Shown piece after piece: positions 44,626 through 55,077 of a stretch of 64,000 nucleotides of DNA. Positions within the stretch are counted from its first letter, which is position 1, and the number at the start of each line of letters is the position of its first letter. The notes under the pieces were generated by a model. It was not told the origin of the DNA. It was given only the letters and a program-made list of their open reading frames with translations, and ran no database searches. Made by a program: the position numbers and the translations under genes. The DNA comes from Escherichia phage vB_EcoM-UFV13. The DNA is taken from the sequence record NC_031103.1; one strand, given 5' to 3'.

Positions 44626-44633
44626 TATAAATA
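44626..44633 (+). promoter_or_regulatory. late promoter motif TATAAATA for gene 34
   Basis: Exact motif 35 nt upstream of the gene 34 ATG. Confidence 0.75.
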
Positions 44634-44667: not shown

Positions 44668-47600
44668 ATGGCCGAGATTAAAAGAAAGTTCAGAGCAGAA
44701 GATGGTCTGGACGCAGGTGGTGATAAAATAATCAACGTAGCTTTAGCTGATCGTACCGTAGGAACTGACGGTGTTAACGTTGATTATCTAATTCAAGAAA
44801 ACACAGTTCAACAATATGATCCAACTCGTGGATATTTAAAAGATTTTGTAATCATTTATGATAACCGCTTTTGGGCTGCTATAAATGATATTCCAAAACC
44901 AGCAGGAGCTTTTAATAGCGGACGCTGGAGAGCATTACGTACCGATGCTAACTGGATTACGGTTTCATCTGGTTCATATCAATTAAAATCCGGTGAAGCA
45001 ATTTCGGTTAACACTGCAGCTGGTAATGATATTACATTTACTTTACCATCTACCCCAATTGATGGTGATACTATCGTTCTCCAAGATATTGGAGGAAAAC
45101 CTGGAGTTAACCAAGTTTTAATTGTAGCTCCGGTGCAAAGTATTGTAAACTTCAGAGGTCAACAAGTACGTTCAGTACTAATGACTCATCCAAAGTCACA
45201 GCTAGTTTTAATTTTTAGTAATCGTCTGTGGCAAATGTATGTTGCTGATTATAGTAGAGAAGCTGTAGTTGTAACACCAGCGAATACTTATCAAGCACAG
45301 TCTAACGATTTTATCGTACGTAGATTTACTTCTGCTGCACCAATTAATATTAAACTTCCGAGATTTGCTAATCACGGAGATATTATTAATTTCGTTGATT
45401 TGGATAAATTAAATCCACTTTATCATACAATTGTTACTACATACGATGAAACTACTTCAATACAAGAAGATGGAACTCATTCTATTGAAGGCCGTACATC
45501 GATTGACGGTTTCTTGATGTTTGATGATAATGAGAAATTGTGGAGATTGTTTGACGGAGACAGTAAAGCACGTTTACGTATCATAACGACTAATTCAAAC
45601 ATTCGTCCAAATGAAGAAGTTATGGTATTTGGTGCGAATAACGGAACAACTCAAACAATTGAGCTTCAGCTTCCAACTAATATTTCTGTTGGTGATACTG
45701 TTAAAATTTCCATGAATTACATGAGAAAAGGACAAACAGTTAAAATCAAAGCTGCCGGTGAAGATAAAATTGCTTCTTCAGTTCAATTGCTGCAATTCCC
45801 AAAACGCTCAGAATATCCGCCTGAAGCTGAATGGGTTACAGTTCAAGAATTAGTTTTTAATGGTGAAACTAATTATGTTCCAGTTTTAGAGCTTGCTTAT
45901 ATAGAAGATTCTGATGGAAAATACTGGGTTGTACAGCAAAACGTTCCAACTGTAGAAAGAGTTGATTCTTTAAATGATTCTACTAGAGCAAGATTAGGCG
46001 TAATTGCTTTAGCTACACAAGCTCAAGCTAATGTCGATTTAGAAAATTCTCCACAAAAAGAATTAGCAATTACTCCAGAAACGTTAGCTAATCGTACTGC
46101 TACAGAAACTCGTAGAGGTATCGCAAGAATAGCAACTACTGCTCAAGTGAATCAGAACTCCACATTCTCTTTTGCTGATGATATTATCATCACTCCTAAA
46201 AAGCTGAATGAAAGAACTGCTACAGAAACTCGTAGAGGCGTTGCTGAAATTGCTACGCAACAGGAAACTAATGCAGGTACTGATGACACTACAATCATCA
46301 CTCCTAAAAAGCTTCAAGCTCGTCAAGGTTCTGAATCATTATCTGGTATTGTAACTTTTGTATCTACTGCAGGTGCTACTCCAGCTTCTAGCCGTGAATT
46401 AAATGGTACCAACGTTTATAATAAAAACACTAATAATTTAGTTGTTTCACCTAAAGCTTTGGATCAGTATAAAGCTACGCCTACTCAACAGGGTGCAGTA
46501 ATTTTAGCAGTTGAAAGTGAAGTAATTGCTGGACAAAGTCAGCAAGGATGGGCAAATGCTGTTGTAACTCCAGAAACGTTACACAAAAAGACATCAACTG
46601 ATGGAAGAATTGGTTTAATTGAAATTGCTACGCAAAGTGAAGTTAATACAGGAACTGATTATACTCGTGCAGTCACTCCTAAAACTTTAAATGACCGTAG
46701 AGCAACTGAAAGTTTAAGTGGTATAGCTGAAATTGCTACACAAGTTGAATTCGACGCAGGCGTCGACGATACTCGTATCTCTACACCATTAAAAATTAAA
46801 ACCAGATTTAATAGTACTGATCGTACTTCTGTTGTTGCTCTATCTGGATTAGTTGAATCAGGAACTCTCTGGGACCATTATACCCTTAATATTCTTGAAG
46901 CAAATGAGACACAGCGTGGTACACTTCGTGTAGCTACACAAGTTGAAGCTGCTGCAGGAAAATTAGATAATGTTTTAATAACTCCTAAAAAGCTTTTAGG
47001 TACTAAATCTACCGAATCGCAAGAAGGTGTTATTAAAGTTGCAACTCAGTCTGAAACTGTGGCTGGAACGTCAGCAAATACTGCTGTATCTCCAAAAAAT
47101 TTAAAATGGATTGTGCAGAGTGAACCTACCTGGGCAGCTACTACTGCGATAAGAGGTTTTGTTAAAACTTCATCTGGTTCAATTACATTCGTTGGTAATG
47201 ATACAGTCGGTTCTACCCAAGATTTAGAACTGTATGAGAAAAATAGCTATGCGGTATCACCATATGAATTAAACCGTGTATTAGCAAATTATTTGCCGTT
47301 AAAAGCAAAAGCTGCTGATACAAATTTATTAGATGGTCTAGATTCATCTCAGTTCATTCGTAGGGATATTGCACAGACGGTTAATGGTTCACTAACCTTA
47401 GCCCAACAAACGAATCTGAGTGCCCCTCTTGTATCATCTAGTACTGCTACGTTTGGTGGTTCAGTTTCGGCAAATAGTACATTAACTATTTCTAATACTG
47501 GAACGGCAACTCGTCTGATTTTTGAGAAAGGACCTCAGACTGGAACTAACCCAGCACAGACGATGACTATCAGAGTTTGGGGAAATCAGTTTGGCGGCGG

Positions 47601-48537
47601 ATCAGATACAACGCGTTCTACTGTATTTGAAGTTGGTGATGAAACATCTAATCACTTTTATTCTCAACGTAATAAAGCTGGGAATATAACGTTTAGTATC
47701 AATGGTACTGTGATGCCAATAAATGTTAACGCTTCAGGCACGTTAAATGCGAATGGCGTTGCAACATTTGGTCGTTCAGTTACAGCCAATGGTGAATTCA
47801 TTAGCAAGTCTGCAAATGCTTTCAGAGCAATTAGTGGTGATTACGGATTCTTTATTCGTAATGATGGCGGCAGCACATATTTTATGCTCACTGCATCCGG
47901 TGATCAGACTGGCGGATTTAATGGATTACGTCCTTTGGCTATTAATAATGCATCTGGCCAAGTAACGATTGGTGAAGGCTTAATCATTGCCAAAGGTGCT
48001 ACTATAAATTCAGGTGGTTTGACTGTTAACTCGAGAATTCGTTCTCAGGGCAATAAAACATCTGATTTATATACTCGTGCTCCTACTGCTGATACAGTCG
48101 GATTCTGGTCAATTGATATTAATGATTCAGCCACTTATAACCAGTTCCCGGGTTATTTTAAAATGGTTGAAAAAACTAATGAAGTGACTGGGCTTCCATA
48201 CTTAGAACGTGGCGAAGAAGTTAAATCTCCTGGTACACTGACACAGTTTGGTAACACACTTGATTCGCTTTACCAAGATTGGATTACTTATCCAACAACT
48301 CCAGAAGCGCGTACCACTCGTTGGACCCGCACATGGCAGAAAACCAAAAACTCTTGGTCAAGTTTTGTTCAGGTATTTGACGGAGGTAACCCTCCTCAGC
48401 CGTCTGATATCGGTGCTTTACCATCTGATAATGCTACAATGGGGAATCTTACTATTCGTGATTTCTTACGAATTGGTAATGTTCGCATTATTCCTGACCC
48501 AGTGAATAAAACGGTTAAATTTGAATGGGTTGAATAA
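44668..48537 (+). CDS. 34: long tail fibre proximal subunit gp34
   Basis: 1289 aa, same as T4 gp34; internal fibre repeat motifs. Confidence 0.95.
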   Translation: MAEIKRKFRAEDGLDAGGDKIINVALADRTVGTDGVNVDYLIQENTVQQYDPTRGYLKDFVIIYDNRFWAAINDIPKPAGAFNSGRWRALRTDANWITVSSGSYQLKSGEAISVNTAAGNDITFTLPSTPIDGDTIVLQDIGGKPGVNQVLIVAPVQSIVNFRGQQVRSVLMTHPKSQLVLIFSNRLWQMYVADYSREAVVVTPANTYQAQSNDFIVRRFTSAAPINIKLPRFANHGDIINFVDLDKLNPLYHTIVTTYDETTSIQEDGTHSIEGRTSIDGFLMFDDNEKLWRLFDGDSKARLRIITTNSNIRPNEEVMVFGANNGTTQTIELQLPTNISVGDTVKISMNYMRKGQTVKIKAAGEDKIASSVQLLQFPKRSEYPPEAEWVTVQELVFNGETNYVPVLELAYIEDSDGKYWVVQQNVPTVERVDSLNDSTRARLGVIALATQAQANVDLENSPQKELAITPETLANRTATETRRGIARIATTAQVNQNSTFSFADDIIITPKKLNERTATETRRGVAEIATQQETNAGTDDTTIITPKKLQARQGSESLSGIVTFVSTAGATPASSRELNGTNVYNKNTNNLVVSPKALDQYKATPTQQGAVILAVESEVIAGQSQQGWANAVVTPETLHKKTSTDGRIGLIEIATQSEVNTGTDYTRAVTPKTLNDRRATESLSGIAEIATQVEFDAGVDDTRISTPLKIKTRFNSTDRTSVVALSGLVESGTLWDHYTLNILEANETQRGTLRVATQVEAAAGKLDNVLITPKKLLGTKSTESQEGVIKVATQSETVAGTSANTAVSPKNLKWIVQSEPTWAATTAIRGFVKTSSGSITFVGNDTVGSTQDLELYEKNSYAVSPYELNRVLANYLPLKAKAADTNLLDGLDSSQFIRRDIAQTVNGSLTLAQQTNLSAPLVSSSTATFGGSVSANSTLTISNTGTATRLIFEKGPQTGTNPAQTMTIRVWGNQFGGGSDTTRSTVFEVGDETSNHFYSQRNKAGNITFSINGTVMPINVNASGTLNANGVATFGRSVTANGEFISKSANAFRAISGDYGFFIRNDGGSTYFMLTASGDQTGGFNGLRPLAINNASGQVTIGEGLIIAKGATINSGGLTVNSRIRSQGNKTSDLYTRAPTADTVGFWSIDINDSATYNQFPGYFKMVEKTNEVTGLPYLERGEEVKSPGTLTQFGNTLDSLYQDWITYPTTPEARTTRWTRTWQKTKNSWSSFVQVFDGGNPPQPSDIGALPSDNATMGNLTIRDFLRIGNVRIIPDPVNKTVKFEWVE
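45970..47040 (+). repeat. degenerate in-frame repeat units inside gene 34
   Basis: Protein motif T-E-x-x-G-x-x-x-I-A-T-Q-x-E-x-x-x-G-T-D-x-T-x-x-x-T-P-K-x-L recurs about seven times. Confidence 0.7.
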
Positions 48538-48545
48538 GAGGTATT

Positions 48546-49661
48546 ATGGAAAAATTTATGGCAGAGTTTGGACAAGGATATGTCCAAACGCCATTTTTAT
48601 CGGAAAGCAATTCAGTAAGATATAAAATAAGCATAGCGGGTTCTTGCCAGCTTTCTACAGCAGGACCATACGTTAAATTTCAGGATAATCCTATCGGAAA
48701 TCAAACATTTAGCGCAGGCCTTCATTTAAGAGTTTTTGACCCTTCCACCGGAGCATTAGTTGATAGTAAGTCATATGCTTTTTCTACTTCAAATGATACT
48801 ACATCAGCTGCTTTTGTTAGTTTCATGAATTCTTTGGCGAATAATAGACTTGTTGCTATATTAACTAACGGAAAGGTTAATTTTCCTCCTGAAGTAGTAT
48901 CTTGGTTAAGAACCGCAGGAACGTCTGCTTTTCCATCTGATTCTATATTGTCAAGATTCGACGTATCATATGCTGCTTTTTATACTTCTTCTAAAAGAGC
49001 TATTGCATTAGAGCATGTTAAACTGAGTAATAGAAAAAGCACAGATGATTATCAAACTATTTTAGATGTAGTATTTGACAGTTTAGAAGATGTAGGAGCT
49101 ACCGGGTTTCCAAGAAGAACGTATGAAAGCGTTGAGCAATTCATGTCAGCGGTTGGTGGAACTAATAATGAAATTGCGAGATTGCCAACTTCAGCTGCTA
49201 TAAGTAAACTCTCTGATTATAATTTAATTCCTGGTGATGTTCTTTATCTTAAAGCTCAGTTATATGCTGATGCTGATTTACTTGCGCTTGGAACTACAAA
49301 TATATCTATCCGTTTTTATAATGCATCAAATGGATATATTTCTTCAACACAAGCTGAGTTCACCGGACAAGCTGGGTCTTGGGAATTAAAGGAAGACTAT
49401 GTAGTTGTTCCAGAAAACGCTGTCGGATTTACGATATATGCACAAAGAACTGCACAAGCCGGTCAAGGCGGCATGAGAAATTTAAGCTTTTCTGAAGTGT
49501 CAAGAAATGGAGGTATTTCGAAACCTGCTGAATTTGGCGTCAACGGCATTCGTGTTAATTATATCTGTGAATCTGCTTCACCTCCGGATATAATGGTACT
49601 TCCTACGCAAGCATCGTCTAAAACTGGTAAAGTGTTTGGGCAAGAATTTAGAGAAGTATAA
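48546..49661 (+). CDS. 35: long tail fibre hinge protein gp35
   Basis: 371 aa. Confidence 0.9.
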   Translation: MEKFMAEFGQGYVQTPFLSESNSVRYKISIAGSCQLSTAGPYVKFQDNPIGNQTFSAGLHLRVFDPSTGALVDSKSYAFSTSNDTTSAAFVSFMNSLANNRLVAILTNGKVNFPPEVVSWLRTAGTSAFPSDSILSRFDVSYAAFYTSSKRAIALEHVKLSNRKSTDDYQTILDVVFDSLEDVGATGFPRRTYESVEQFMSAVGGTNNEIARLPTSAAISKLSDYNLIPGDVLYLKAQLYADADLLALGTTNISIRFYNASNGYISSTQAEFTGQAGSWELKEDYVVVPENAVGFTIYAQRTAQAGQGGMRNLSFSEVSRNGGISKPAEFGVNGIRVNYICESASPPDIMVLPTQASSKTGKVFGQEFREV

Positions 49662-49692: not shown

Positions 49693-49700
49693 TATAAATA
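49693..49700 (+). promoter_or_regulatory. late promoter motif TATAAATA for gene 36
   Basis: Exact motif 24 nt upstream of the gene 36 ATG. Confidence 0.75.
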
Positions 49701-50394: not shown

Positions 50395-53300
50395 ATGGCT
50401 ACTTTAAAACAGATACAATTTAAAAGAAGCAAAACCGCAGGTGCACGTCCTGCTGCTTCAGTATTAGCCGAAGGTGAATTGGCTATAAACTTAAAAGATA
50501 GAACAATTTTTACTAAAGATGATTCGGGAAATATCATTGATCTAGGTATTGCTAAAGGCGGTCAAATTGATGGAAATGTGACTATCAATGGTCTTTTAAG
50601 ATTAAATGGGGATTATACACAAACTGGTGGAATGACCGTAAATGGACCTATTGGTTCTACTGAAGGCGTATCCGCCTTAGTTTTTAGATCTATGCGAGGG
50701 TCATTTTACGCAAGAGCAACAAATGATACTTCCAATGCCCATCTTTGGTTTGAAAATACAAATGGATCAGAGAGAGGTGTTTTATATTCAAAACCGCAGT
50801 CTGAAAATGAAGGCGTAATTACAATGCGCGTTCGTCAAGGAACCGCAGCAGGGGCTCAAAATTCAGAATTTCATTTCATTTCTACTGATGGCGGTATCTT
50901 CCAGGCACGCAAATTAACTGCTTTAACTTCTATTAGTACACCAACTATTAGTGTTAATTTAATTAATCACGATTCTAAAGCCTTTGGACAATATGATTCA
51001 CAGTCATTAGTTCAGTATGTTTATCCTGGAACAGGTGAAACAAATGGCGTAAACTATCTTCGTAAAGTTCGTGCTAAATCAGGTGGTACAATTTATCATG
51101 AAATTTGTACAGCTCAGACTGGGCTGGCAGATGAAATGTCATGGTGGACTGGTAATACACCGTTATTTAAACTATACGGTATTCGTAACGACGGTAGAAT
51201 GATTATCCGCAATAGCTTGGCCATTGGTACTGTGACTGAAGGATACCCGTCAAGCGATTATGGAAATACCGGGGTAATGGGAGATAGGTATTTAGCTCTT
51301 GGCGATAATGCTTCTGGACTTAAATGGGTTCGTACTGGCGTTATTGACTTAATGGCTAACGGTATTTCTGCGGCGACTATTATTAATAATGGTATTAATA
51401 GTACTAAAAAATTGATGGTCGGTTATAGCCGCGATTCTGGTACTACATGGGATTTTCCAAATAACAACCAAGCAATGTTTACTGCGCGTACCGATATTGA
51501 TGGTAATAATAACGGTGATGGGCAAACTCATATCGGTTATAACAGTAATTCTAAAATGTATCACTATTTCCGTGGTACAGGTCGTATGGCTGTTGGTATG
51601 TCCCAAGGTCTCCTTGTTGAACCAGGAATTTTAGATATTAACACTGGTTCTAACAGAGTTGCTATTAGAGCAGATGGTACATTTGACTCAACCCAACGTA
51701 TTTCTATGCGTACGGGCTTGTTTTTAAGCGGTGATGATAATACTAATGCTTTATTGTTTAAAGCGCCTTCCGGCGTAGATGGTACTAAACCCATTAGCTG
51801 GGCCGCAGGTACTCGTAACGGTCAGAATAAAAATGACATTTCAATTAAAGTATGGGGTAATGCCTTTAACTCAGTTCCGGGTATTAGAGAAACTGTATTT
51901 GAAGTATATGATTCACAAGGTTATTATTTTTATTCACAACGCCAGCGCCCAGAAGGTTCTGAAACTGTTGGGCCTGTTGTAACTCAGTTCAGTGGTCAAG
52001 TTAATGCTAACGGCTCTATTAGCACTGCAGGAAATCTTAAAGTTGATGGTTTGAGTACTTTAAACGGTAATGTTACAATGAAGAACGGTTTGTTTGTTCA
52101 AGGTGGTTCTTCTATTACTGGACAAGTTAAAATCGGCGGAACAGCTGACGCATTAAGAATTTGGAATGCTGAATATGGTGCTATTTTCCGCCGTTCGGAA
52201 AGTAATCTTTATATTATCCCGACTCCTAAAGGTGCCGGAGAATCGGGCGGTATAAGTAATCTTAGACCATTGATAATAGAACTGAACACTGGTACAGTTA
52301 AAATGTCGCATGATGTTCATTTAGGAGATTCTGGATCTGGTACAGGATTATTACAAGTAAGTAATAGTCTTAAAACTATTAAAATGATATGTCCAGTAAC
52401 TATTAATGAACGCAATGCAGCGCTTACTTTAGATTCTCCTTCATCTTCTTCTGCTAATTATTTACAGGGTTCTAAAGCTGGAACTAGATCATGGTATGTT
52501 GGTCTTGGTGGCGCTGGAAATGATTTATCGCTTTATAGCCAATCTTATGGACATGGTCTTGTTATAAGCGATAATTTCGTGTCAATCAGTAAACCTCTTA
52601 AAGTCGGAAATGCCCAATTAGGAACTGACGGTAATATTACCAATGGTTCAGGAAACTTTGCCAACTTAAACACCACGTTAAATCGTAAAGTTAATTCTGG
52701 ATTTATTACTTATGGAGCAACTGCTGGCTGGTATAAGTTTGCAACAGTAACAATGCCACAATCCACTTCTACGGTCTTCTTTAAAATAGCCGGTGGTTCT
52801 GGATTTAATAGCGGATTATTCACACAATGCAATATTGCTGAAATTGTTTTACGTACTAGTAATGAAAGACCTGCTGACTTAAATGCTGTATTATATACAA
52901 GAACATCTGGACTGTATAGCGCAGCATTTAGAAATATTGCAGTTAACAATGTCTCTGGAAATACATATGACATTTATGTTTATGCCGGAACATATTGTAA
53001 TCAACTAGCGTGTGAATGGTCATGTACCGAAAATGCTACTGTTAGCGTTATTGGTATTAACTCATCTACACAATCACCTGTAGATGCTCTTCCAGATACA
53101 GCAGTTAACGGTCAAGTTGCTAATGTTCTTAATAACTTGGTTGATCGTGGTAAAGCAAAACGTTATGTAGCAGAGTCGGAAATTGCTATTAATAACCAAA
53201 CTGGTATTCGTATTACGAGTAATTCTGATAGATCAGGTTCTAATTCCGTTTTATTTCGAAATGACGGTGGAAACTTCTATATTTTACTGACCGACAAAAA

Positions 53301-54255
53301 CTCTTCGGACGGCGATAATAAAGCGACTGAAGGCGATTGGAATGGAAAACGACCGTTTTCCATTGATATGACTGCTGGTACTGTTCGTCTTGGCGAAAAT
53401 ACTTCTTTTGATAAAGATATTACTATTAATGGAAACATTAATTCACGAGTTAAAGCTGCCGGACAATGGAGTGTTAGCTTTTCTGCTATTTCAGATGTGA
53501 CTCGCGACAATTCTGCATTCTTAGCGAATACGGGTGGCATTTCCAAGACAAGTCAAGCTTATTACCCGCTATTTTCTGGATACAGTTTTTTAACTGACGC
53601 GGGTTATCGACAATCGTTTGAATTTGGATGGTTAGGTGTTTCTGGTACTTGGCGCCAAGGCATTATTCGCATGCGTGGTGACAACGCATCGGGGCAACAG
53701 GCTCGTTGGACTTTTGATATGGATGGAACATTTTATGCTCCTATACTATCATGCGGATCTGCGAGAGCATTCGGTGTCAATACATCAAATGGTCTCGGTG
53801 GAAACAGTATAACATTTGGTGATAGCGATACCGGTATTAAGCAAAATGGTGATGGATTATTAGACATATATGCGAACAACGCACAAGTATTCCGTTTCCA
53901 AAACGGCGATTTGTACTCATACAAAAATATAAATGCTCCAAACGTTTATATTCGTTCTGATATTCGTTTAAAATCCAACTTCAAACCTATCGAAAATGCA
54001 CTTGATAAAGTTGAAAAACTTAACGGTGTCATTTACGATAAAGCTGAATACATCGGTGGAGAGGCAATTGAAACTGAAGCGGGTATTGTGGCTCAAACGT
54101 TGCAAGACGTTTTACCAGAAGCTGTCCGTGAAACAGAAGACAGTAAGGGTAATAAAATACTCACTGTTTCTTCTCAAGCCCAGATTGCTCTTCTAGTTGA
54201 AGCTGTGAAAACACTTTCTTCTCGTGTAAAAGAACTTGAATCTAAACTTATGTAA
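50395..54255 (+). CDS. 37: long tail fibre distal subunit gp37, T2-type with C-terminal chaperone-like domain
   Basis: 1286 aa; C-terminal about 110 aa (…NGVIYDKAEYIGGEAIETEAGIVAQTLQDVLPEAV…LESKLM) resembles a cleaved intramolecular chaperone domain. Confidence 0.9.
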   Translation: MATLKQIQFKRSKTAGARPAASVLAEGELAINLKDRTIFTKDDSGNIIDLGIAKGGQIDGNVTINGLLRLNGDYTQTGGMTVNGPIGSTEGVSALVFRSMRGSFYARATNDTSNAHLWFENTNGSERGVLYSKPQSENEGVITMRVRQGTAAGAQNSEFHFISTDGGIFQARKLTALTSISTPTISVNLINHDSKAFGQYDSQSLVQYVYPGTGETNGVNYLRKVRAKSGGTIYHEICTAQTGLADEMSWWTGNTPLFKLYGIRNDGRMIIRNSLAIGTVTEGYPSSDYGNTGVMGDRYLALGDNASGLKWVRTGVIDLMANGISAATIINNGINSTKKLMVGYSRDSGTTWDFPNNNQAMFTARTDIDGNNNGDGQTHIGYNSNSKMYHYFRGTGRMAVGMSQGLLVEPGILDINTGSNRVAIRADGTFDSTQRISMRTGLFLSGDDNTNALLFKAPSGVDGTKPISWAAGTRNGQNKNDISIKVWGNAFNSVPGIRETVFEVYDSQGYYFYSQRQRPEGSETVGPVVTQFSGQVNANGSISTAGNLKVDGLSTLNGNVTMKNGLFVQGGSSITGQVKIGGTADALRIWNAEYGAIFRRSESNLYIIPTPKGAGESGGISNLRPLIIELNTGTVKMSHDVHLGDSGSGTGLLQVSNSLKTIKMICPVTINERNAALTLDSPSSSSANYLQGSKAGTRSWYVGLGGAGNDLSLYSQSYGHGLVISDNFVSISKPLKVGNAQLGTDGNITNGSGNFANLNTTLNRKVNSGFITYGATAGWYKFATVTMPQSTSTVFFKIAGGSGFNSGLFTQCNIAEIVLRTSNERPADLNAVLYTRTSGLYSAAFRNIAVNNVSGNTYDIYVYAGTYCNQLACEWSCTENATVSVIGINSSTQSPVDALPDTAVNGQVANVLNNLVDRGKAKRYVAESEIAINNQTGIRITSNSDRSGSNSVLFRNDGGNFYILLTDKNSSDGDNKATEGDWNGKRPFSIDMTAGTVRLGENTSFDKDITINGNINSRVKAAGQWSVSFSAISDVTRDNSAFLANTGGISKTSQAYYPLFSGYSFLTDAGYRQSFEFGWLGVSGTWRQGIIRMRGDNASGQQARWTFDMDGTFYAPILSCGSARAFGVNTSNGLGGNSITFGDSDTGIKQNGDGLLDIYANNAQVFRFQNGDLYSYKNINAPNVYIRSDIRLKSNFKPIENALDKVEKLNGVIYDKAEYIGGEAIETEAGIVAQTLQDVLPEAVRETEDSKGNKILTVSSQAQIALLVEAVKTLSSRVKELESKLM

Positions 54256-54257
54256 AA

Positions 54258-54273
54258 GAGGGCTTCGGCCCTC
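54258..54273 (+). other. UUCG hairpin between genes 37 and 38, preceding the gene 38 Shine-Dalgarno
   Basis: GAGGGC-UUCG-GCCCUC then UAAGGAUUUUUA-AUG. Confidence 0.6.
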
Positions 54274-54285
54274 TAAGGATTTTTA

Positions 54286-55077
54286 ATGGCAATTGTAGGT
54301 GTTCCTGGCTGGATTGGCGAATCTGCCGTGAATGAAACTGGACAACGTTGGATGGATGCTGCGATGAAAGCTGTTCGTGTTTCAGTTCCCGGTTGGATGA
54401 GTTCAATGGCTGGGCAATCTAAAGAAGTATATTATAGTGTTGGTGCTAGTAATTCTTATAATAAAGACACACTAATAAATTGGATAAAAGCTCAAGGAAG
54501 TACTCCTGTTGTTATTACTATTACAGGAAATATTGTTTCTCAATCTACTGGTGTTCCATGCTTAGATTTTCCTAGCTCATTAACTAATGCGTATGTTACC
54601 TTAAATATTAATAGCGGGGTTCATGTATTAGGTCGGGGAGGAAATGGCGGAAGTAACTCTGCTGGTGGAGCAGGAGGAACTGCAATAAATAACGGAATTG
54701 GAACTCGTTTAAGAATAAACAATAATGGTATTATTGGTGGCGGTGGCGGTGGCGGCGCAGGTGCTAGATACAATCCTTTCCCTCAAATGGATATGAAATT
54801 TGGCGGCGGAGGAGGTCGTCCATTTGGTGCTGCCGGTGCAGCCGGTGGCGGCGCAGCGGCTGCATCTGCCGGTACAATTTCTGCTCCTGGTAAAGGCACT
54901 GTTTCTGGGGTTCACCATGGAGGAGATGGTGGAGATTTGGGAGCTGCTGGCAAATCTTCATATATTCAAGGTGGTACTGGAGGAACTGTTCACTCGGGTG
55001 GTGCTGCGGGTAAAGCTGTTACTGGTAATGCTCCAACTTGGACTAAAGTTGGTACAATATATGGTGCAAGAGTATAA
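54286..55077 (+). CDS. 38: tail fibre tip adhesin gp38, T2-type with glycine-rich motifs
   Basis: 263 aa with several poly-Gly motifs (GGGGGGAGA, GGGGGRPFGAAGAAGGGAAAA); differs from the 183-aa T4 gp38. Confidence 0.88.
   Translation: MAIVGVPGWIGESAVNETGQRWMDAAMKAVRVSVPGWMSSMAGQSKEVYYSVGASNSYNKDTLINWIKAQGSTPVVITITGNIVSQSTGVPCLDFPSSLTNAYVTLNINSGVHVLGRGGNGGSNSAGGAGGTAINNGIGTRLRINNNGIIGGGGGGGAGARYNPFPQMDMKFGGGGGRPFGAAGAAGGGAAAASAGTISAPGKGTVSGVHHGGDGGDLGAAGKSSYIQGGTGGTVHSGGAAGKAVTGNAPTWTKVGTIYGARV

Follow-up and report, generated by a model that had tools for sequence, protein, structure and literature searches.

Quasi-repeats of the long tail fibre proximal subunit gp34 in Escherichia phage vB_EcoM-UFV13 and their overlap with a putative replication origin

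The window analysed here is the whole 64,000 nucleotide stretch of DNA from Escherichia phage vB_EcoM-UFV13 (NC_031103.1), numbered from its first letter. Evidence from the list of open reading frames (ORFs), homology to T4, Pfam and matches to the PDB identified the following gene:

44,668–48,537, plus strand: gene 34, long tail fibre proximal subunit, 1,289 aa

The encoded protein aligned to T4 gp34 without gaps, 1232 of 1289 residues (96%) being identical with 57 differences, and homology was present over the full length of the protein (PDB 9x3r_M, E = 0, residues 1–1289). A sequence search of the PDB matched gp34 to entries 9x3r, 5nxh, 5nxf and 4uxe at E = 0 or close to it, the crystallised T4 sequence 5nxh corresponding to residues 726–1289 of the window protein (E = 0). 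Its C-terminal part carries the Pfam domains Gp34_trimer (PF21446, E = 1.8e-33) and Gp34_2nd (PF21560, E = 3.4e-38). Gene 34 matched 714 phage records and, among the matches listed, all annotations were long tail fibre proximal subunit. The gene order rnh (minus strand), 34, 35, 36, 37, 38 and t is as in the T4 record, with plus strand ORFs of 1289, 371, 220, 1286, 263 and 218 aa in succession, and Pfam identified Phage_T4_gp36, gp37_trimer, GP38 and Phage_holin_T on the neighbouring ORFs.

A self dot-plot of the gp34 protein (BLOSUM62, 20-residue windows, score of at least 35) yielded 410 high-scoring windows, whereas 30 shuffled versions averaged 1.6 and never exceeded 6. Matches were confined to residues 421–800, save a few at approximately 901–1040, and the chief offsets were 36, 40, 125, 161, 227 and 263. 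A first-pass annotation, made from the sequence alone, had described degenerate tandem repeats inside gene 34 and had proposed this plot as a check; the periodicity bears out the description, with units of approximately 36 to 50 residues. Two repeat profiles were built, the first from six hand-cut units and the second from eight. The six-unit profile recovered both of the units that had been left out of it (residues 437–476 and 602–641) and the eight-unit profile detected every clear unit at E values of 2e-14 to 3e-19. The motif quoted in the annotation matches units 2 and 3, whose consensus is TATETRRG.A.IAT...AGTDDT.IITPKKL. Among the eight clear units Gly8, Ala13 and Pro34 are invariant, while Thr3, Thr14, Thr33 and Leu37 are nearly so; Gly8, Thr/Ser33 and Pro34, each present in 8 of 8 units, correspond in position to the Gly, Ser/Thr and Pro that Granell 2017 (PMC5537660) reports as conserved. 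Pfam holds no model for the repeat, the sole match being a sub-threshold one to gp12-short_mid at residues 469–498 (13.7 bits, E = 0.074).

In the DNA, for which a comparison had likewise been proposed, the repeat hardly shows. Tandem Repeats Finder reported no repeats in gene 34, even at a minimum score of 30, and the array displayed only short families at 60–80% identity. Pairwise nucleotide identity among units was 42–62% (35–67% at third positions), and the longest exact run inside the array measured 23 nt, between units 2 and 3 (46,096 versus 46,216). The components of the array are as follows:

45,976–46,095, plus strand: repeat unit 1, aa 437–476, 40 aa (left-out recovery E = 1.6e-5; eight-unit profile E = 2e-14)
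46,096–46,215, plus strand: repeat unit 2, aa 477–516, 40 aa (profile E = 1.8e-17)
46,216–46,323, plus strand: repeat unit 3, aa 517–552, 36 aa (profile E = 2.6e-19)
46,324–46,470, plus strand: repeat unit 4, degenerate, with a long loop, aa 553–601 (weak profile signal; published structure-based alignment)
46,471–46,590, plus strand: repeat unit 5, aa 602–641, 40 aa (left-out recovery E = 2e-5; eight-unit profile E = 1.9e-15)
46,591–46,698, plus strand: repeat unit 6, aa 642–677, 36 aa (profile E = 9.8e-19)
46,699–46,806, plus strand: repeat unit 7, aa 678–713, 36 aa (profile E = 3.6e-17)
46,807–46,896, plus strand: non-repeat spacer of 30 residues between units 7 and 8, aa 714–743 (profile-negative)
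46,897–47,004, plus strand: repeat unit 8, aa 744–779 (profile E = 7.5e-17; T4 crystal residues 744–776, PMC5537660)
47,005–47,112, plus strand: repeat unit 9, aa 780–815 (profile E = 1.7e-18; T4 crystal residues 780–812, PMC5537660)
47,131–47,280, plus strand: repeat unit 10, with a long beta-hairpin insertion, aa 822–871 (T4 crystal repeat fold, residues 822/823–868, PMC5537660)

The array thus comprises eight clear units and two degenerate long-loop units over residues 437–871 (nucleotides 45,976–47,280), its 3' end lying at 47,112 if taken at unit 9 or at 47,280 if taken at unit 10. The span of 45,970–47,040 given in the annotation ends 70 to 240 nt too early, and its figure of about seven copies falls short of the eight clear and two degenerate units found. 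The arrangement is tandem, as had been claimed, but not continuous, being broken by the spacer at residues 714–743, which matched neither the six- nor the eight-unit profile. Units 7 and 8 are likewise separated by approximately 30 residues in phages RB43, KpV477, Acj61, PX29 and D483. Within unit 4 the profile saw only the C-terminal half (..NLVVSPKALDQ), and this weakly (E = 0.1–0.3); the same position scored weakly in RB43, PX29, Acj61 and KpV477, and the structure-based alignment of Granell 2017 (PMC5537660) places an additional repeat at residues 552–598. Unit 10 was missed by the repeat profile in the window protein, and its orthologue was detected in RB43 (E = 0.0098) and Vibrio phage D483 (E = 0.0038). 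For units 4 and 10 of the window protein, which fall short of significance with the sequence profile, the assignment relies on the structure-based alignment in the literature.

There is little doubt that the array represents the known quasi-repeats of the T4-type long tail fibre proximal subunit gp34. Protein, numbering and unit boundaries are the same as in T4, where the classical seven repeats extend from residue 437/438 to 797 and those at 744–776, 780–812 and 822/823–868 have been solved. The two proteins share the conserved Gly and (S/T)-Pro as well, and approximately six substitutions separate them within residues 437–871, with no difference in structure or organisation. Reviews citing Cerritelli 1996 give seven quasi-repeats at residues 438–797 (PMC3004832), and a rod of approximately 400 Å has been correlated with this cluster (Leiman et al. 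2010, PMC3004832), in keeping with the assignment of the repeats in the annotation to the proximal half-fibre. Granell 2017 aligned ten gp34 units, three of them solved (PMC5537660; PDB 5NXH/5NXF). The repeats, the unit number, the fold and the relation to gp12 have all been published and a full-length gp34 structure is in the PDB; as a discovery the repeat array carries little weight.

The annotation had also supposed that the units form a repeating beta-structure, a suggestion at odds with the T4 structure, where each unit within residues 744–877 contains two helices and the triple beta-helix occupies residues 900–1127, beyond the array (PMC5537660). The triple beta-helix and beta-prism segments of gp34 (900–1127), gp37, gp5C and the C-terminal part of gp12 are also trimeric fibrous repeats, and it is this part of gp34 that shares the Gp34_trimer domain with gp37; these segments are all-beta, intertwined and, in gp34, located after residue 900, whereas the array has helices and a central three-helix bundle (PMC5537660). 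Single-sequence prediction of residues 430–881 using AlphaFold2 with no alignment gave an unusable model (mean pLDDT of 30, pTM of 0.24). The fold of units 8–10 is taken from the literature as that of the T4 crystal structure of a near-identical protein, while the fold proposed for units 1–7 rests on homology to units 8–10 and to gp12. Each unit of the homotrimer would fold as a mixed alpha/beta fibrous module in which the chain turns through 90 degrees at the invariant Gly and enters a beta-strand that points outwards. A short helix and a variable surface loop would come next, and then a helix capped by (S/T)-Pro. This last helix would pack with its two symmetry mates as a central three-helix bundle. 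End-on stacking of the modules builds the thin, stiff rod that links the C-terminal beta-helix and prism domains to the N-terminal globular domain, which attaches to the baseplate protein gp9 (Leiman 2010 review, PMC3004832).

Outside gp34, related repeats occur in the N-terminal shaft of the T4 short tail fibre protein gp12 (PDB 5IV5), with the same motif of approximately 36 residues. In gp12 of the related phage vB_Eco_Some six motif units were found at residues 50–270 (E = 2e-23), and the PDB gp12 chains 5iv5_O, 9f4b_FG and 5lye_A matched the array at E values of 3e-16 to 4e-12. Residues 182–215 of gp12 superpose on the gp34 units with the same mixed alpha/beta fold (Granell 2017, PMC5537660). 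The two proteins differ in that gp12 has six units rather than ten and a receptor-binding C-terminus of its own.

The ten-unit layout, with its spacer and with long loops in units 4 and 10, was retained in RB43, KpV477, Acj61, Aeromonas phage PX29 and Vibrio phage D483 at identities of 34–57%. When units were compared between phages, the best match was the same-numbered unit for 9 of 10 units in RB43, 9 of 10 in Acj61 and 7 of 10 in KpV477. At least 80% of the array was held by 1480 of 1501 phage records. These comparisons mark the ten-unit layout as ancient and fixed in the proximal fibres of Straboviridae. Across six divergent phages with the same layout and position-wise orthology, nothing pointed to exchange between units or to their homogenisation; there is no sign of repeat shuffling, because the layout is conserved position for position as far as Vibrio and Aeromonas phages. 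The array may have arisen through ancient duplications and would now change by point substitution rather than by recombination among its units or with other fibre genes, the number of units presumably being fixed by functional constraint on fibre length. A fixed ten-unit layout is of relevance to the engineering of fibre length.

The coding DNA of the array is overlapped on the opposite strand by a putative replication origin, assigned by homology to T4 and comprised of two features:

46,877–46,905, minus strand: middle-mode (MotA-type) promoter of oriG, or ori(34), antisense to gene 34 (ATTTGCTTCA + 13 nt + TATAAT)
46,790–46,870, minus strand: presumed DNA unwinding element, downstream of the oriG promoter (boundaries inferred)

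A dedicated pattern search identified the middle-mode arrangement, a MotA box at -30 and a sigma-70 -10 element, on the minus strand at 46,877–46,905 (TTTGCTTCA, 13 nt, TATAAT). The promoter was absent from the output of a generic sigma-70 scan, since a -35 hexamer is missing from promoters of the MotA class. The replication origin annotated in T4 (rep_origin at 152947, minus strand) corresponds to nucleotide 2139 of gene 34 and to window position 46,806, and the segment concerned is 99% identical to that of T4, which has the same arrangement of a MotA-box/-10 promoter and a downstream A+T-rich segment at the homologous minus strand site. The G+C content drops to 0.30 at 46,790–46,849. In the array, oriG spans approximately 46,790–46,905 in antisense orientation, and reaches from the end of unit 7 across the spacer into unit 8; the A+T-rich stretch downstream of the promoter overlaps the 3' end of unit 7. 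It is a DNA element that overlaps the array and no part of the protein repeat. OriG has been described as a middle-mode promoter plus DNA unwinding element, with a minimal size of approximately 100 bp (Kreuzer & Brister 2010, PMC3016281). As a separate observation, an 'ori type 2 repeat' annotated in phage Kha5h, the 10-mer CTTTAAATGA (gene strand), occurs twice in gene 34.

Among seven aligned Tequatrovirus sequences, the diversity minimum of the whole of gene 34 fell at 46,762–46,881 (pi of 0.004 versus a mean of 0.080), within a trough of low diversity of approximately 350 nt (46,580–46,940). In synonymous diversity no other trough of the gene is as deep, and oriG coincides with it. Third-position segregating sites numbered 6 of 90 in the trough and 107 of 345 in the remaining array (Fisher p = 4e-7, although the sites are non-independent). 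In 454 of 823 records the identity of a 131-nt oriG core was 99% or higher, a level that none attained over the whole gene. The promoter motif was kept in seven Tequatrovirus and three Mosigvirus, persisting in the latter through synonymous changes. One explanation, which complements that of the quasi-repeats, is that oriG constrains the synonymous sites from unit 7 through the spacer to the start of unit 8; we judge the chances of this to be evenly balanced. The trough exceeds the minimal origin in length, its statistics derive from just seven sequences, and, even with no selection on origin function, a shared recombination block or homogenisation at the origin-linked hot spot would leave a trough of this kind. 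With slightly less assurance still, this segment may be regarded as dual-use DNA, in which oriG imposes strong synonymous conservation on a structural gene across Tequatrovirus. Alternatively, the segment may be homogenised among co-infecting T-even phages by the recombination hot spot linked to the origin. The origin looks to have settled secondarily in a pre-existing spacer of the fibre shaft, because the spacer is also present in phages without the promoter motif. If so, a secondarily settled oriG may now shape the possible evolution of that part of gp34. Since oriG lies in coding DNA of the array, synonymous recoding or repeat engineering over it could disturb replication.

The remaining proposal of the annotation was that the repeats, as well as forming beta-structure, provide patches of DNA homology for recombination with other fibre genes such as 12 and 37, or for shuffling of units through unequal crossing-over. 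In its favour are the 23-nt run and the short DNA families noted above, the protein motif common to gp12 and gp34, a single repeat-like stretch of gp37 mentioned in reviews (aa 88–104, PMC3004832), and a classical hot spot of recombination within gene 34, although the title of Kreuzer & Alberts 1985, as cited in PMC3016281, ties this to the replication origin oriG and not to the repeats. The longest exact match of array DNA was nevertheless 11 nt to gene 12 of the related phage, gene 12 lying outside the window, and 12 nt to genes 35–38, and the best blastn alignments to other fibre genes were 37 nt at 81% (gene 12) and 23 nt at 91%. With exact matches of at most 11–12 nt to other fibre genes and 23 nt inside the array, the stretches of DNA homology are too short to support recombination. 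The comparison of motifs that had been suggested with gp12 and gp37 holds for the first of these at the protein level but not for the second, where no unit was detectable. No other ORF in the window was matched by the repeat profile and, in a permissive search limited to gp35, gp36 and gp37, the last gave no match and the others only fragments with scores below zero; the stretch at aa 88–104 went undetected by the profile in gp37 of both the window phage and T4. True similarity between gp34 and gp37 lies outside the array, in the Gp34_trimer domain, which also matches gp37 residues 498–628, and in DNA at 47,620–47,669 versus 51,892–51,941 (74%). Together with the mixed alpha/beta fold, the divergence of the units in nucleotide sequence and the orthology of their order and number across genera, these results largely refute the combined beta-structure and recombination proposal, which we consider very improbable. 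Reading the units as beta-structure and as recombination substrates are two tempting misinterpretations that are corrected here.

An antisense ORF at 46,084–46,326 (80 aa, TTG start) lies within this well-conserved coding region and was set aside.

The repeat array lies within an ORF of 1289 codons (44668-48537, + strand), whose product agrees without gaps at 1232 of 1289 residues (96%) with gp34 of T4, the proximal subunit of the long tail fibre. T4 residue numbers can therefore be applied directly, and the interval first assigned to the repeats (45970-47040) corresponds to gp34 residues of about 435-791. Gene 34 DNA matched 714 phage records, and the annotations listed under the match all name this subunit. 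The highest identity was 96.7%, which indicates a Tequatrovirus related to T4 but distinct from it. Neighbouring ORFs of 371, 220, 1286, 263 and 218 amino acids correspond to gp35, gp36, gp37, gp38 and holin t. PDB sequence matches to gp34 were 5nxh, 5nxf and 4uxe, with a full-length T4-type gp34 (9x3r) and a 1281-residue relative (9f4a). The T4 late-promoter consensus TATAAATA occurs directly upstream of gene 34 (44626-44633) and gene 36 (49693-49700); its 13 occurrences in the window are not significantly above shuffles (mean 8.6).

A self dot-plot of gp34 (BLOSUM62, 20-residue windows, score at least 35) yielded 410 matches, whereas 30 shuffles averaged 1.6 and never exceeded 6. All fell within residues 421-800, bar a small cluster at about 901-1040, with offsets of 36, 40, 125, 161, 227 and 263. 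When six units were cut by hand to make a profile, it also picked up two that had been left out, at 437-476 (E 1.6e-5) and 602-641 (E 2e-5), and an eight-unit profile gave E values of 2e-14 to 3e-19 for each of its units. The presence of tandem repeats inside gene 34 is thus borne out.

Shaft repeat units of gp34 (residues, + strand)
437-476, unit 1, clear
477-516, unit 2, clear
517-552, unit 3, clear
553-601, unit 4, degenerate with a long loop; C-terminal half alone matched, weakly
602-641, unit 5, clear
642-677, unit 6, clear
678-713, unit 7, clear
714-743, non-repeat spacer
744-779, unit 8, clear
780-815, unit 9, clear
822-871, unit 10, long insertion; not significant by profile in the window, orthologue detected in RB43 and Vibrio phage D483

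Gly8, Ala13 and Pro34 are invariant across the eight clear units, and Thr3, Thr14, Thr/Ser33 and Leu37 nearly so. The motif given in the first-pass annotation is the consensus of units 2 and 3; its count of about seven copies and its end at 47040 were both slightly low, the array ending at nucleotide 47112 (unit 9) or 47280 (unit 10). The repeat is faint in DNA. Tandem Repeats Finder reported no repeat in gene 34, nucleotide identity between units was 42-62%, and the longest exact run inside the array was 23 nt (units 2 and 3); the only DNA repeat families seen within the array were short, at 60-80% identity.

The repeats are already known: Leiman et al. 2010 (PMC3004832) describe them in a passage that cites Cerritelli et al. 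Granell et al. 2017 (PMC5537660) solved the structure of T4 gp34(744-1289), resolving three repeats (744-776, 780-812 and 823-868), and extended the repeat definition, adding a repeat at 552-598. Each unit comprises a tight turn, beta-strand, alpha-helix, variable loop, short beta-strand and alpha-helix, the last helix joining a three-helix bundle along the threefold axis; the units were superposed on gp12 (short tail fibre protein) 182-215, and the triple beta-helix begins only after residue 900 (PMC5537660). The gene was identified correctly, and so was the role of the repeats in forming the proximal half-fibre rod; the label of repeating beta-structure is wrong, the solved units being mixed alpha/beta. 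By homology to units 8-10 and gp12, units 1-7 would share this fold. A single-sequence structure prediction for residues 430-881 reached a mean pLDDT of 30, too low to use.

The repeats had also been proposed to provide homology for recombination with other fibre genes, which these data do not support. The profile matched gp34 and no other ORF when the window was translated in all six frames. Searched on their own with permissive settings, gp35, gp36, gp37 and T4 gp37 yielded no unit, and the repeat stretch reported at gp37 residues 88-104 was not recovered either. As gene 12 falls outside the window, gp12 was taken from the closest relative (phage vB_Eco_Some); it contains six units at the protein level (E 2e-23). 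At the DNA level, gene 12 shared at most 11 consecutive identical bases with the array (best alignment 37 nt at 81%), and the longest exact match in genes 35-38 was 12 nt. The real similarity between gp34 and gp37 resides in the C-terminal Gp34_trimer domain (PF21446), matching gp37 residues 498-628. Within this shared domain is a 50-nt direct repeat of 74% identity (gene 34, 47620-47669; gene 37, 51892-51941), equivalent to the known similarity of gp34 971-998 to gp37 486-513 (PMC3004832).

The array region was full-length in 1480 of 1501 matching phage records, with identities down to 34-40% in Vibrio and Aeromonas phages. The profile found the same layout in the divergent phages RB43, KpV477, Acj61, Aeromonas PX29 and Vibrio D483, including long-loop units 4 and 10 and the ~30-residue spacer that follows unit 7. 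The best cross-phage match was the same-numbered unit for 9/10 units in RB43, 9/10 in Acj61 and 7/10 in KpV477. Together with the common layout, this indicates that the duplications are older than these genera. No concerted evolution was seen between the window and RB43, Acj61 or KpV477, and no copy-number flux among the five phages; we infer a constraint on fibre length.

The counterpart of the T4 replication origin oriG lies inside the array. The T4 RefSeq record annotates oriG (ori34) at 152947 in the minus-strand direction, equivalent to gene 34 nucleotide 2139 and window position of about 46806.

Putative origin within the array
46790-46905, minus strand, oriG/ori(34), antisense in the array; putative MotA-box promoter (TTTGCTTCA + 13 nt + TATAAT) and downstream A+T-rich segment

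On the minus strand at 46905-46877, ATTTGCTTCA followed after 13 nt by TATAAT constitutes a putative MotA-box middle promoter. The surrounding 261-nt segment is 99% identical to T4, and G+C falls to 0.30 just downstream. This arrangement agrees with what has been published on oriG (PMC3016281), in which a middle-mode promoter is paired with an unwinding element, A+T-rich and about 100 bp long. The element takes in the spacer, reaching back into the end of unit 7 and on into the opening codons of unit 8.

When gene 34 was aligned from seven Tequatrovirus, the lowest nucleotide diversity of the whole gene coincided with oriG, pi dropping to 0.004 at 46762-46881 (mean 0.080). Third codon positions were segregating at 6 of 90 sites in 46640-46910 versus 107 of 345 elsewhere in the array (Fisher p 4e-7, the sites being non-independent). 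Of 823 records, 454 matched the 131-nt core at 99% identity or more, a level reached by the whole gene in none. Three Mosigvirus relatives retain the promoter motif through synonymous changes (TTTGCTTTA ... TATAAT). The motif was not found at this position in RB43, KpV477, Acj61, PX29 or D483, though the spacer is present, and the origin thus looks secondary to the spacer. The trough in synonymous diversity over oriG, the only element that is even mildly new, may reflect, in these seven sequences, selection on origin function or homogenisation at the origin-linked recombination hot spot to which the title of Kreuzer & Alberts 1985 (a reference in PMC3016281) refers. The GenBank record of phage Kha5h annotates a 10-mer, CTTTAAATGA, twice in gene 34 as 'ori type 2 repeat'.

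Kha5h 'ori type 2 repeat' copies (gene strand)
Kha5h 1301-1310, about window 45968
Kha5h 2018-2027, about window 46685

Divergence within gene 34 is concentrated at 47420-47960 (gp34 residues ~920-1100), with 22-36 mismatches to T4 per 150 nt against 0-12 in other parts. Diversity among Tequatrovirus here was pi 0.16-0.22, with a second, smaller peak at 44850-45200. The pattern points to the beta-helix/prism part of gp34, rather than the repeats, as a site of mosaic exchange. The weaker second internal similarity in the dot-plot (residues ~901-940 and ~1001-1040; 47368-47490 and 47668-47790) matches the segments 901-944 and 1014-1047 that Granell et al. 2017 (PMC5537660) assign to the triple beta-helix.

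The distal fibre (50395-55077) is of T2/T6 type and not T4 type. Whereas T4 has a gp37 of 1026 amino acids and a gp38 chaperone of 183, here gp37 has 1286 amino acids, its C-terminus being a Peptidase_S74 intramolecular-chaperone domain, and the next gene encodes a GP38 adhesin (PF05268) of 263; the phage therefore joins a T4-like proximal fibre to a different distal fibre. Residues 58-127 of gp35, the hinge or 'knee' protein (48546-49661), score 35 bits (E 2e-8) with the Pfam family ILEI (Interleukin-like EMT inducer, PF15711), for which the curated cut-off is 27.
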